Part shown: positions 18,022-33,908 of the stretch, one piece after another
Layout: each line of letters begins with the position of its first letter
Numbering within the stretch: the stretch's first letter is position 1
From: a virus
DNA: 43,120 nucleotides
Reading direction: 5' to 3' (one strand)
Virus record (IMG/VR): IMGVR_UViG_3300048911_000054
Made by a program: the position numbers and the translations under genes
The notes under the pieces: model-generated
What the model was told of the DNA's origin: nothing
The model's database searches: none
The model's input: only the letters and a program-made list of their open reading frames with translations

Positions 18022-18096
18022 TGGCAAACCCCCGTGGATTCGAACCACGTCCGCACGGCTTTGGAGGCCGGCATGCAGCCATTACACCTGGAGCCT
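18022..18096 (-). tRNA. tRNA-Trp(CCA)
   Basis: Reverse complement AGGCTCCAGGTGTAATGGCTGCATGCCGGCCTCCAAAGCCGTGCGGACGTGGTTCGAATCCACGGGGGTTTGCCA. Perfect T-arm CGTGG-TTCGAAT-CCACG, anticodon loop CU-CCA-AA, acceptor stem with three G.U pairs, encoded CCA. Confidence 0.7.
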
Positions 18097-26224: not shown

Positions 26225-26584
26225 GTGAACACAAAAACCGAAGAAACCAGACACGCGATGTACCAGCACCTGGAGGGTGTGAAGAAGACGATCAAGAAGG
26301 GCTTCAGCCCCCGGGCGAAGATGTCCGACTTTGAGTCGGCGCTTAAGGAACATCTTGAGTCGCTGAGGCAAGACCTGGCATTCATGAAAGCGCAACTTAT
26401 GAACTGCCGCCAGGCCAACACTGACCTGCAGCTGCGCATCCACGCCCTGGAACACGCCGCGCATGTGAATGGCCAGGCCAACCTTGAGGCCGGCGATCAG
26501 CTGCGTGAGGCCCAGGCGCTTATCCAACGCCAGCGCGAATACATCGGCAAGGTCCACGTTGAGGGATTGGGAGTACGAACATGA
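26225..26584 (+). CDS. Coiled-coil protein, 119 aa
   Basis: GTG start preceded by the same GGAGAATAACC context as the previous gene. Confidence 0.5.
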   Translation: MNTKTEETRHAMYQHLEGVKKTIKKGFSPRAKMSDFESALKEHLESLRQDLAFMKAQLMNCRQANTDLQLRIHALEHAAHVNGQANLEAGDQLREAQALIQRQREYIGKVHVEGLGVRT

Positions 26585-26844
26585 GCACTGAGAAAATGCG
26601 AGAAGAATTTGAGGCGTGGGCTCTAGAAGGGTGGGCGGAAGAAAGCCTGTCTAGGTTCACGAATGGGGATTACTGCGGGCATACGCTGAATTTCTGCTGG
26701 CTTGCATGGCAGGCCTCAAGGAAATCAATAGTTATTGACCTTCCTACCGAGTACGACTGCTGTGGAGGGACCACCTCGTATGAAATCCGAGATATGGCAA
26801 TCGAAGCTGTAAAGGAAAAAGGCTTGGGAGTCTCTAATGAATAA
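26581..26844 (+). CDS. Hypothetical protein, 87 aa (paralog of the next gene)
   Basis: EEFEAWA...WLAWQASRKSIVIDLP. Confidence 0.55.
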   Translation: MSTEKMREEFEAWALEGWAEESLSRFTNGDYCGHTLNFCWLAWQASRKSIVIDLPTEYDCCGGTTSYEIRDMAIEAVKEKGLGVSNE

Positions 26845-27118
26845 GCCAATGGACATTCAGTTCGAAGCGTGGGCGCGGAAAATGTCCATGGACCTTGAGT
26901 ATCGAAACATTCCTGGCGTCGGACAATTCTACGAATGCCCACGAACGTTGCTGGCTCTGGAAGCCTGGCAAGCCTCCCGCGCAGCCATTGAGGTGGAGTT
27001 GCCTAAGATTGTCGATAAGGAATGGGAAAACACGCATGCCGAGCGCTCGGCAATGCGCGAAGCAATCGGATGGTGCAAAAAGCGCATCGAGTCACTCGGA
27101 CTGAAGGTGAAGCCATGA
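26837..27118 (+). CDS. Hypothetical protein, 93 aa (paralog of the previous gene)
   Basis: IQFEAWA...LEAWQASRAAIEVELP. Confidence 0.55.
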   Translation: MNKPMDIQFEAWARKMSMDLEYRNIPGVGQFYECPRTLLALEAWQASRAAIEVELPKIVDKEWENTHAERSAMREAIGWCKKRIESLGLKVKP

Positions 27119-27252
27119 CCAAGCGCACCTGGACAATCCGCGTCGACGGATACCGACCTTTTCAAATGGTGCTGCTCGACGGCGCACTCGACCACGCCGG
27201 GGCTCTGCGGGAAGCGCGGGGCATCTGGCCAAATTGTGAGGTTTTTCCATGA
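27115..27252 (+). CDS. Hypothetical small protein, 45 aa
   Basis: ATGA overlaps at both ends. Confidence 0.45.
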   Translation: MTKRTWTIRVDGYRPFQMVLLDGALDHAGALREARGIWPNCEVFP

Positions 27253-27593
27253 GCGCCAACCACGCAAAACACTTCGAAACCCGCAAGGCCTCTGCCGAGG
27301 AAACCGCGCGCTGGCTTCTCCCGGAAGTTCAGCGGGCAGAGGGTCGGGGCTTCGATGAAGTCTCGATCAAGGTCCGAGACATGAAGGAGCTGCTGTCGTA
27401 CATAGAGGCCGTATCTTACCGGGAGCGGGTCGAGTTCTCGGGCAAGCGCCTTGGCTACGCCAACCCTCAGGCCATGCGCGATCTGCTGAGCCGCAAGGTC
27501 GACAAGATCGAGGTTTTCGCCATCCAGTCGAAGTATGCCTGCACCCTGGCCAGCTACACGGACTTGCCGCCGAAGGGAGTTGGTGATGAGTGA
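27249..27593 (+). CDS. Hypothetical protein, 114 aa
   Basis: ATGA coupling; coding-like codon pattern. Confidence 0.55.
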   Translation: MSANHAKHFETRKASAEETARWLLPEVQRAEGRGFDEVSIKVRDMKELLSYIEAVSYRERVEFSGKRLGYANPQAMRDLLSRKVDKIEVFAIQSKYACTLASYTDLPPKGVGDE

Positions 27594-27783
27594 TTACTAC
27601 TGCATCAAGACCAGGCGATTCATCAAGTCGCATTGCTACGCGGGCCATGAGTACACGCCTGAAAATACTGGGGTAGATTCCAGAGGGAACAGGTTCTGCA
27701 AATGCTGCGCACGAACAAACGGGCGCAACCGTCTGCGTAAATTCCGTATCCGAGAAGCTATTGCAAGTGCGGCAGAGTCGTAG
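27586..27783 (+). CDS. Zinc-binding small protein (CxxGH...CxxC), 65 aa
   Basis: MSDYYCIKT...HCYAGHEYTPENTGVDSRGNRFCKCCARTN. Confidence 0.5.
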   Translation: MSDYYCIKTRRFIKSHCYAGHEYTPENTGVDSRGNRFCKCCARTNGRNRLRKFRIREAIASAAES

Positions 27784-27832
27784 CATTATCACTCCCGCCA
27801 AGACCGTCAGACAGTCGAAGCAAGAAGACCAT

Positions 27833-27952
27833 GTGCCGGGGACAAGCCCGTTGTAGCAATGCCTTGTTTCCATCTGTGATCAAGCCTCCCCGGCACTGGT
27901 CGACCACAGATGGGAGTCTGACCAAGGCATTGACTAGAACGGGCTTTTTTTT
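27833..27952 (+). terminator. Complex RNA element: ~100-nt interrupted hairpin plus U8 (terminator) with an upstream 10-nt competitor segment
   Basis: Nested stems: 27844-52/27938-46, 27854-56/27934-36, 27857-66/27923-32, 27870-78/27905-13. T8 tract at 27945-52. 27833-42 (GTGCCGGGGA) is perfectly complementary to apical-loop 27887-96. Confidence 0.65.
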
Positions 27953-27985
27953 GCATTGAATTAAACCAACCGAGAAGGAAGAACC

Positions 27986-28972
27986 ATGAACAGCGCACAA
28001 CGAGCAGTAGTTGCAGCAGCCAAGAAAGACGGGCTTTCCCCGATGGAAGTGGCCGCCGAACTGATGAACCACGATATCACCGAAGTGGTCCTGGGCCTGA
28101 TGCGCAAGCGTGAGGTGGCATTCAACAAGCTGGGCGAGAAGGAGCAGGACGCGGTGATCGCTGAGATCGGCGCCGAACTGAAGAAGATCACCGCCACCGC
28201 TGCCCGCGTCATCAACAGCCAGGGTGTGGAGTGCGTCCAGGCCAAGATGAAGTCCCTGAAGATCGACGGCAAGCTCACCGCCACCATGGTGATCGAAGGC
28301 GACGAGCCAAACCGCCACGTCCTGACAGACAAGACTCACGATAAGTCGGACATCCTGATCGTCCTCTACTCCAACAACTACAACGAGGGCATGAGTGCCC
28401 ACGTCGGCGAAAAGGACCAGAAGCCACTCGATCTTGAAGGCGACGGTAAGCCGGCCGGCAAGAAGTCGGCGCCCAAGGCCAAGGCCGGCACAGAAAAGAA
28501 GATTGAGCTGACTCCGAAGCTTATCGCCGACGGCCGAGACTTCGTTACCATCCAACAGAACGCTAGCATCAAAGGCCTTCAGAATATTTTGCACATTGGC
28601 TATGACAAGGCCGAAGCGCTGCTGAAGCTGTACGAGGGCGAAGGTCTGGTCAAGTTCGTGGGCACTGATCAGAACGGCCAGTACGAGATCGTGCGCGCCG
28701 GAAAGCCACTCACTGATGCTCCAGATGCACTGGTCAATTCTCAACTGTACGGCGAACTGACCTACAGCGAAGTTCAGCAGACCGTGGTGCTGCATGCCAC
28801 GAACTTCGAACTGGCCTGGTTGGTGTCGCGTTTCAAGATCGACGAAGAGCGCGCCAGTCATCTGTGCCTGCAACTGCTGGATGACGGCGTGATTGAAGCC
28901 TTGGCATCCACTGACCTTGACGCAGAACCGCAGTACGAAGTCATCGCCAAGCTGGAAGACCTGACCATCTGA
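27986..28972 (+). CDS. Protein with FtsK-gamma-like winged-helix domain(s), 328 aa
   Basis: DFVTIQQNASIKGLQNILHIGYDKAEALLKLYEGEGLV resembles the FtsK gamma domain (..ASIS.LQR.L.IGYNRAAR..E.ME..G.V). A second, weaker wHTH-like segment: TNFELAWLVSRFKIDEERASHLCLQLLDDGVI. SD GAAGGAAG. Confidence 0.6.
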   Translation: MNSAQRAVVAAAKKDGLSPMEVAAELMNHDITEVVLGLMRKREVAFNKLGEKEQDAVIAEIGAELKKITATAARVINSQGVECVQAKMKSLKIDGKLTATMVIEGDEPNRHVLTDKTHDKSDILIVLYSNNYNEGMSAHVGEKDQKPLDLEGDGKPAGKKSAPKAKAGTEKKIELTPKLIADGRDFVTIQQNASIKGLQNILHIGYDKAEALLKLYEGEGLVKFVGTDQNGQYEIVRAGKPLTDAPDALVNSQLYGELTYSEVQQTVVLHATNFELAWLVSRFKIDEERASHLCLQLLDDGVIEALASTDLDAEPQYEVIAKLEDLTI

Positions 28973-28990
28973 TCCAGCATAGAAACACAA

Positions 28991-29019
28991 AAGCCCCGGC
29001 CGAAACGCTGGGGCTTTTT
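28991..29019 (+). terminator. Intrinsic terminator after the FtsK-gamma-like gene
   Basis: AAGCCCCGGC-cgaaac-GCTGGGGCTT followed by TTTTA. Confidence 0.75.
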
Positions 29020-29098
29020 ATTTGATGGCGAATTGTACTTGCGCTGGGTTGTTGGTGGCTATATGATCATCAAACACAAACCAAATAGGAACCATAAA

Positions 29099-29296
29099 AT
29101 GGCACACGTAGACTCCCGCATTGCACCCAAGTTTGTCGTCCGCTTTGACGATGATCAGCCGCGCGCCGAGGTAGAGAAGGCATCCAAGGAACAGCACATC
29201 TCCATGAACGCCTTCATCCTCCAGGCCATCGACGAGAAGCTGGCGCGCGGCGCACGCATCGACCGCCTGCTGGACGTTGTTGAATTCAAACTCTGA
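29099..29296 (+). CDS. Arc/MetJ-type ribbon-helix-helix protein, 65 aa
   Basis: APKFVVRFDDDQPRAEVEKASKEQHISMNAFILQAIDEKL fits an RHH pattern. Start at ATG 29099 with SD AGGAA. Confidence 0.6.
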   Translation: MAHVDSRIAPKFVVRFDDDQPRAEVEKASKEQHISMNAFILQAIDEKLARGARIDRLLDVVEFKL

Positions 29297-33876: not shown

Positions 33877-33878
33877 AG

Positions 33879-33901
33879 AAGGGCGCCGCAATGGCGCCCT
33901 T
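33879..33901. terminator. Bidirectional terminator hairpin at the convergence of the early-right and late transcription blocks
   Basis: AAGGGCGCC-gcaat-GGCGCCCTT, 9-bp perfect stem. Confidence 0.65.
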
Positions 33902-33908
33902 CCTGTTT

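Follow-up and report, generated by a model that had tools for sequence, protein, structure and literature searches.

A conserved leader RNA with two competing folds, probably a promoter-proximal attenuator, in Pseudomonas phages

The window analysed here is the IMG/VR virus record IMGVR_UViG_3300048911_000054 (43,120 nt), and all coordinates are positions in this stretch unless another locus is named. It is related to HU1, AF and UFJF_PfDIW6, which belong to a group of Pseudomonas podoviruses with early genes of lambdoid style and without an RNA polymerase of their own (PMC8951688). The RNA element that is the subject of this work lies on the + strand, 3′ of a gene for a 65-aa zinc-ribbon protein and 5′ of a gene for a 328-aa protein. 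The genes and sites around it are as follows:

27249–27593: gene of a 114-aa protein, upstream of the RNA element
27586–27783: gene of the 65-aa zinc-ribbon protein, directly upstream of the RNA element
27986–28972, + strand: gene of the 328-aa protein (PHROG 6576; weak FtsK-gamma-like winged helix), the gene proposed to be controlled
28989–29018, + strand: ordinary intrinsic terminator (12-bp) 3′ of the 328-aa gene, closing a one-gene unit
29040–29068, + strand: promoter-like TTGCGC-17-TATGAT, ahead of an Arc-like gene (start at 29099)

The 65-aa protein matches only the C-terminal part (~166–214) of the phage HNH endonuclease families PHROG 826 and PHROG 1492, so that it amounts to an isolated C-terminal zinc ribbon lacking the nuclease core. 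The protein is common, with 274 relatives in IMG/VR. The 114-aa protein matched no Pfam or PHROG family. A protein search (23 clusters) showed that many related phages keep it on the upstream side of this boundary, whether or not they carry the element; it was considered as a partner of the RNA element and rejected, because phages without the element carry it too. The adjacent small genes at 26581–26844 and 26837–27118 are paralogues, both belonging to PHROG 343 (unknown function). No tRNA or tmRNA was found at the RNA-element locus by a tRNA/tmRNA scan; the window carries a tRNA-Trp (CCA) gene at 18022–18096 (− strand), and the corresponding place in HU1 is occupied by tRNA-Asn and tRNA-Thr.

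A first-pass annotation of the window had proposed a nested hairpin ending in a U tract within the gap between the zinc-ribbon gene and the 328-aa gene. The inverted arms are present at the sites given there (27844–56/27934–46, 27857–66/27923–32 and 27870–81/27902–13), and the T8 tract lies where it was placed (27945–52). Folding of the RNA 27820–27965, one of the checks suggested at the time, returned the nested hairpin as the minimum-energy fold at −63.2 kcal/mol, compared with a mean of −39.5 for shuffled sequences (z = −6.18; 0 of 200 shuffles as stable). The nested hairpin thus stands, and its apical loop is partly closed in this fold: 27878–82 (GAUCA) pairs with 27897–901 (UGGUC), and 27884–86 (GCC) pairs with 27892–94 (GGC). 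The resulting structure, referred to here as fold T, consists of the following parts:

27802–27816, + strand: small 5′ hairpin, present in fold T only, with segment 1 (see below) in its loop (constrained fold)
27844–27946, + strand: terminator hairpin (minimum-energy fold; covariation across the family), with stems P1 27844–52/27938–46, P2 27854–56/27934–36, P3 27857–66/27923–32 and P4 27867–77/27906–16, and the apical stems P6 27878–82/27897–901 and P7 27884–86/27892–94
27945–27952, + strand: U8 tract of the predicted intrinsic terminator (a run of 6–8 T after the hairpin in all members)

Homologous elements were collected by pattern scans of viral and metagenome contigs, from loci anchored on neighbouring proteins, and from Logan contigs reached via the 114-aa protein. 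This yielded 20 distinct copies, all from Pseudomonas phage contigs or from Pseudomonas phage HU1, whose stem sequences differ while the pairing is kept; the HU1 homologue has different stem sequences and the same fold. P1 (AAGCCCGUU/AACGGGCUU, 27844–52/27938–46) is G+C-rich and runs into U8, and the same arrangement is found in 20 of 20 members. Judged by its sequence, 27844–27952 qualifies as an intrinsic (Rho-independent) terminator, namely a G+C-rich stem abutting a U run.

Fold T, comprising the long hairpin and the small 5′ hairpin, has 45 pairs with 94.4% of cells paired and compensatory changes at 31 of the pairs, as counted on a 20-sequence alignment fitted to this structure, so that the figures lean to their own model. 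None of 500 shuffles scored as high, and sliding the partners by 1–3 columns lowered the values to ≤49% paired and ≤9 compensatory pairs. The small 5′ hairpin shares in this support, with compensatory changes in 5 of the 6 pairs of helices 1–2 of the T model. When a plain MAFFT alignment, not fitted to the structure, was submitted to RNAalifold, the same hairpin was obtained with 26 compensatory pairs. The hairpin pairings are therefore kept and covarying in relatives, a check that had been named in the first-pass annotation. Its view that this is no routine terminator is supported, the hairpin being a structured RNA that is conserved across the family. The strand was assigned from the U-tract, the promoter and the gene orientation, because the reverse complement of 27792–27954 folds as well or better (−74.6 versus −65.7 kcal/mol for the plus strand).

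The leader upstream of the hairpin carries two stretches complementary to the hairpin's loops. One had been recognized from the start: GTGCCGGGGA (27833–42) is perfectly complementary to TCCCCGGCAC (27887–96). This 10-mer forms only part of a longer helix of 15 bp, interrupted by a single bulged U, in which GACCA 27827–31 also pairs with UGGUC 27897–901. The other long-range complement, absent from the first-pass annotation, is GTCAGAC 27806–12 with GTCTGAC 27916–22. In the structure formed by these pairings, fold A, the leader pairs with the internal and apical loops of the terminator and not with its 5′ arm:

27806–27812, + strand: segment 1 (GUCAGAC), 5′ strand of the outer helix of the putative antiterminator, pairing with 27916–22
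27827–27842, + strand: segment 2 (GACCA-U-GUGCCGGGGA), 5′ strand of the inner helix of the putative antiterminator, 15 bp plus one bulge with 27887–901
27887–27901, + strand: loop strand UCCCCGGCACUGGUC, whose partner is segment 2 in fold A but GAUCA/GCC in fold T
27916–27922, + strand: GUCUGAC, partner of segment 1, located within the terminator hairpin, in its internal loop on the 3′ side

The segment-1 helix (7 bp) is 100% paired in the 20 sequences, and 4 of its 7 pairs change on both sides, with three versions in three lineages (GUGGAAC/GUUCCAC, GUCAGAC/GUCUGAC and UUGAGAC/GUCUCAA). Its partner strand is unpaired in fold T and covaries freely. Segment 2 is almost invariant in 19 of 20 members, and HU1 retains only GACCA:UGGUC and GGGG:CCCC; the support for this helix comes from conservation, with almost no covariation, and from one partly degenerate lineage (HU1). 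The loop strand 27887–901 is likewise invariant in 19 of 20 members, as would be expected if the same nucleotides had to serve two different partners. Across the family fold A is 97% paired, counted on 20 sequences in an alignment fitted to fold A and subject to the same leaning as the fold T count, and the RNAalifold consensus on 16 sequences is fold A itself. In three relatives (L123, L126 and L129) the extreme 5′ end also pairs strongly with the 3′ strand of P1/P2, and fold A is the global minimum. This additional pairing is neither conserved nor covarying across the family, and was rejected as a feature of the family or of the window.

Segment 2 also contains an ATG (27831), which opens a 42-codon frame to TGA 27957–59, as had been pointed out. 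In a trp-type attenuator, a ribosome on this frame would choose the fold. An AUG lies inside segment 2 in 14 of 16 copies examined, and the frame in the window crosses the entire hairpin. However, the start codon is missing in HU1 and L083, and in other copies the frame from this AUG has 7, 8, 24, 34, 39+ or 41+ codons, in differing frames. Moreover, no Shine–Dalgarno sequence lies upstream, and the substitutions in the stems are compensatory for pairing and not synonymous. Since the frame is not conserved, the leader-peptide version, and with it the translation-coupled read-through suggested earlier, is rejected; we find it hardly credible.

By these comparisons, the element is a conserved RNA family that is undescribed; switches of this type are well known. 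Rfam gave no match at the gathering score across the whole window, and three local permissive scans (E up to 10) returned chance matches only, to eukaryotic lncRNA, snoRNA and sub-threshold CRISPR-repeat models. Pairing in fold A or fold T accounts for each of the conserved nucleotides, and no sign of a ligand pocket or aptamer was found. Given this full account by pairing and the lack of Rfam matches, a riboswitch is unlikely; a new class is possible. In L126 (6517–6559; also in L123, L125 and L129), the sequence GGAUUGAAAC runs from the last part of segment 2 into the beginning of the terminator stem, with sub-threshold Rfam matches to the CRISPR repeat models DR8, DR9 and DR10 (E 0.2–2.4). 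We take it to resemble the 3′ handle of type I-C repeats, a likeness that is probably due to chance, as the sequence is absent from the window and from most members.

Searches beyond the family gave the following results. Using blastn against phages and plasmids, only HU1 was matched, with the match ending before the element, and there were no plasmid matches. Scanning of GTDB representative genomes gave chance matches in high-GC genomes only and no Pseudomonas prophage copy, the single Pseudomonas match having been read and found not to be a homologue and the others having been judged by host taxa. A covariance model search of ~85 related phage loci returned no further copies.

Folds A and T exclude each other: nucleotides 27892–94 and 27897–901 are used in both, and the helices of A cross every pair of T. 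The competition is direct at UGGUC 27897–901, which pairs with GACCA 27827–31 in A and with GAUCA 27878–82 in T. Two options had been offered for the 10-mer, a pseudoknot or a mutually exclusive structure. As a static form, the pseudoknot is disfavoured by the geometry, since only 1 nt separates the end of segment 2 from the foot of a ~31-bp hairpin and the apical loop would therefore be out of reach while the hairpin stands. The mutually exclusive alternative fared better, in that the leader complement defines a fold excluding T, and each of the two folds has comparative support. Covariation is seen throughout T and in the outer helix of A, indicating that both are maintained by selection.

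Since A can form once 27901 has been transcribed, before the 3′ arm of the terminator exists, the choice between the folds would be made during transcription. Prefix folding of the window gave A as the minimum-energy fold until ~27935, and T from 27940. For nascent RNAs from loop completion to about the U-tract, A was the minimum at every length in 15 of 16 copies; the exception was HU1, in which A is never the nascent minimum. For RNAs cut so as to begin at the predicted start site and finish with the U-run, the energies of A and T lie within 3 kcal/mol of each other in 10 of 20 copies, and within 6 kcal/mol in 15 of 20. At full length, T is more stable than A by ~12 kcal/mol in the window and by ~24 kcal/mol in HU1, and going by these modelled energies the element could act as a nearly constitutive terminator in these two lineages.

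Upstream of the leader, a promoter-like motif is present in the window:

27761–27766, + strand: −35-like hexamer TTGCAA, within the last codons of the upstream zinc-ribbon gene; candidate promoter element
27784–27789, + strand: −10-like hexamer CATTAT; transcript start predicted at ~27796–27797 from the usual ~7-nt distance

The motif TTGNNN-17(18)-NANNNT is found in 20 of 20 copies, with the −10 ending 16–17 nt before segment 1. The −10-like hexamers of other members include TACAGT, CAAGAT, CATATT and CAGGAT, and the upstream genes differ too. On the basis of its conservation, we infer that this motif is a sigma-70-type promoter. A pattern scan of 27700–28000 returned no promoter-like site. 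On the minus strand of the same interval no promoter-like site was found by pattern scan, and no conserved TTG...TAnnnT was seen across members by eye, which is weak negative evidence. As no opposite-strand promoter was seen, a countertranscript of the pT181/pIP501 type is unlikely.

The ATG of the 328-aa gene lies 33 nt from the U-run, with a ribosome-binding site at ~27973–82 and no promoter-like site in between. In 18 of 20 copies a start codon follows 13–36 nt past the U-run, and the other two have none within 45 nt. These distances leave no room for a second promoter, and regulated read-through into the next gene, as proposed in the first-pass annotation, is therefore the most economical reading. 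The terminator is situated as in an attenuator, in the 5′ leader between the promoter-like motif and the first gene, with no other promoter seen.

In the window, as in L083, L124 and others, the element is followed by the 328-aa gene; HU1 has this gene too, with a broken HNH homing-endonuclease gene in between. Recombination genes follow the element in most relatives; the downstream genes other than the 328-aa gene are a YqaJ-type exonuclease and RecT, Erf and an exonuclease, RecT alone, or a small gene. The intervening region of HU1 (L001 4559–5110) contains an HNH/NUMOD-type frame (...NHKNGIRDDNRLENLEWATASENVAHG...) split over several frames; its annotation shows a pair of small hypothetical genes instead, one of which is placed on the wrong strand. 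From its sequence it looks like a decayed homing endonuclease inserted directly after the terminator.

Relatives without the element have a plain terminator and then a plain promoter at the same genome position, and the site is therefore a transcription-unit boundary. L241 (3005–3090) and L249 (~2000–2080), both without the element, have a simple terminator (CCCCGG...CCGGGGTTTTTATTT) and then a strong consensus-like promoter, TTGACA-18-TATGAT in L241 and TTGACG-17-TATACA in L249. After the 328-aa gene of the window the order is also the conventional one of terminator then promoter, unlike that of the RNA element. Because the 328-aa gene ends at an ordinary terminator and a promoter-like site comes next, the element heads a one-gene unit in the window. 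In the element itself the promoter stands ahead of the terminator, which is sensible only if the terminator is conditional.

In a simpler reading, the hairpin is just an unusually long constitutive terminator or insulator, and the complementarity upstream of it is either accidental or works at the level of the DNA. In favour of such a role are the very stable T fold followed by U8 and the reverse strand, which folds equally well. It is difficult to reconcile with the three different covarying versions of the segment-1 helix, with a 15-bp segment-2 helix kept in 19 of 20 copies, with a promoter-like motif at a fixed distance upstream, and with downstream genes that depend on read-through, and we regard it as highly improbable.

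The sequence of promoter, short leader, strong terminator and genes is also that of PR′-tR′, and the element might be a target of processive antitermination, like lambda PR′-6S-tR′ with Q or the HK022 put RNA. Transcription would then stop at U8 by default, and a phage factor or the leader RNA would modify the polymerase to pass this terminator and later ones. Further + strand intrinsic terminators do lie downstream, at 28989–29018 and 33878–33902. However, Q-like or other antiterminator families are absent from the upstream genes (Pfam/PHROG), the 114-aa upstream protein is shared with element-less phages, and the promoter-like site after the next terminator means that processivity is not required. 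Nor does either the Q or the put model need a covarying alternative fold that takes the terminator's own nucleotides. Control of the Q-like or put-like kind is not indicated by the sequence, and we consider processive antitermination very unlikely; nor does any sequence feature speak for the nut-like or protein-mediated control offered in the first-pass annotation.

A stand-alone gene for a trans-acting small RNA was also weighed. Segment 2 (GACCAGAUGCCGGGGA) would be the seed for host or phage mRNAs, the internal complement would modulate access to it, and downstream expression would be leak. The layout resembles that of an Hfq-type small RNA, in which a long terminator hairpin with U8 comes after a 5′ hairpin, a conserved single strand and a purine-rich linker. 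Conservation is highest in segment 2, and fold T is thermodynamically dominant in HU1 and in the window. However, a seed needs neither near-equal A and T energies in most members nor covariation of segment 1, and in the 43-kb window other sites complementary to the loop or to segment 2 occur only at chance level. At none of the loci does the downstream gene have a separate promoter, so that read-through is required and not incidental. We consider a stand-alone small-RNA gene unlikely. Under the terminator/antiterminator reading, a stable ~155-nt terminated RNA is an expected by-product, which may have a function of its own.

Taken as a whole, the evidence favours a promoter-proximal terminator/antiterminator leader that controls the 328-aa gene in the window and, in most relatives, genes of recombination, a reading to which we assign a probability of roughly 60%. 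The leader probably sets the amount of transcription that reaches the next genes. In the proposed mechanism, the sigma-70-type promoter (27761–89) would start an RNA at ~27797, the first ~155 nt of which could adopt the two exclusive folds. In fold T, the 5′ hairpin, the single-stranded segment 2 and the hairpin 27844–27946 abutting U8 would make up an intrinsic terminator, which would release a ~155-nt RNA and keep RNA polymerase out of the 328-aa gene. In fold A, the 5′ leader would zip onto the 3′ half of the hairpin (27827–42 with 27887–901, and 27806–12 with 27916–22), remove UGGUC and GGC from the apical stems, and enclose the 5′ arm of the hairpin in a loop. The terminator could then not zip, and the polymerase would read through. 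Promoter firing, termination by T, antitermination by A and a modulated ratio of the two are all four things that we infer.

The ratio of A to T might be set by polymerase speed or pausing, by a host protein that binds RNA, for instance Hfq, at the purine-rich linker 27813–26, or by the terminated RNA in trans; these are candidates, and neither the sequence, the neighbouring genes nor Rfam points to a particular signal. The last of them would make the terminated ~155-nt RNA its own effector, which would pair in trans with nascent leaders, block A and force termination. The T-folded RNA would expose segment 2 and the UCCCC loop and accumulate from replicating genomes, and the pairing would have to occur in a window of ~1 s before the nascent leader's own partner is transcribed. 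Co-folding of the full RNA with a nascent leader gave only a trivial domain swap and is uninformative on trans action. We treat this feedback as speculative and improbable.

The proposed leader resembles the classical attenuators (riboswitch platforms; the pyrBI and trp leaders; the repC and repR leaders of pT181/pIP501) in having an intrinsic terminator between promoter and first gene, an upstream 'pre-emptor' strand that pairs with part of the terminator, a co-transcriptional decision, and conservation of both folds. Unlike these, it has no aptamer, leader peptide or opposite-strand countertranscript that we could find. Its geometry is also unusual: what the antiterminator strand invades is not the 5′ arm of the terminator hairpin but its apical and internal loops, and exclusion is due in part to shared nucleotides (27892–901) and in part to topology.

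The c4 RNA of P1/P7 is a system comparable to P4 CI RNA immunity. As summarized in PMC4825925 (citing Sabbattini 1995 and Briani 2000), P4 CI is a structured RNA derived from the leader of the operon under its control and is complementary to sites in the same-sense transcript, with the pairing governing premature termination. The element is similar to P4 CI and P1 c4 in that its loop and internal loop are complementary to two upstream sites of the same transcript. It differs from them in that the target does not recur farther along the transcript, close to the ribosome-binding site, or elsewhere in the window, and in that Rfam gave no match; in contrast to P4 CI, its pairing would prevent termination in cis and not cause it.

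IsrK of the Gifsy-1 prophage (Salmonella) comes in two forms with alternative structures, a short terminated RNA and an mRNA made by read-through, of which the former acts on the latter (PMC4825925). Like IsrK, the element would be a phage leader with terminated and read-through forms and alternative structures. However, IsrK controls translation of the downstream ORF and not termination, and there is no similarity in sequence or in Rfam. In lambda PR′-6S RNA-tR′ and in StxS, a promoter and a terminated transcript of 150–200 nt lie directly upstream of an operon that depends on read-through. The element would share this arrangement of a promoter and a short terminated transcript ahead of genes needing read-through. 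In contrast to lambda PR′-tR′, no Q homologue was found here, and the genes under its proposed control are early/middle DNA-metabolism genes and not late genes; the lambda leader, for its part, is not known to have a covarying antiterminator fold.

As these podoviruses have no RNA polymerase of their own, the timing of their genes must use the host polymerase, promoters and terminators. Placed before genes for recombination and DNA handling, a self-contained RNA switch would offer a compact means of controlling timing or dosage, and the element would represent a new portable cis-regulatory RNA family for Pseudomonas. Because both folds have comparative support and the element is short, it is a tractable model for co-transcriptional folding decisions of this loop-invading kind. 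If the feedback in trans were true, it would amount to copy-number-sensing negative feedback by a same-sense RNA, with a pT181-like logic but without a countertranscript. It would be related to P4 CI and IsrK, and would add a new design to antisense-controlled attenuation.
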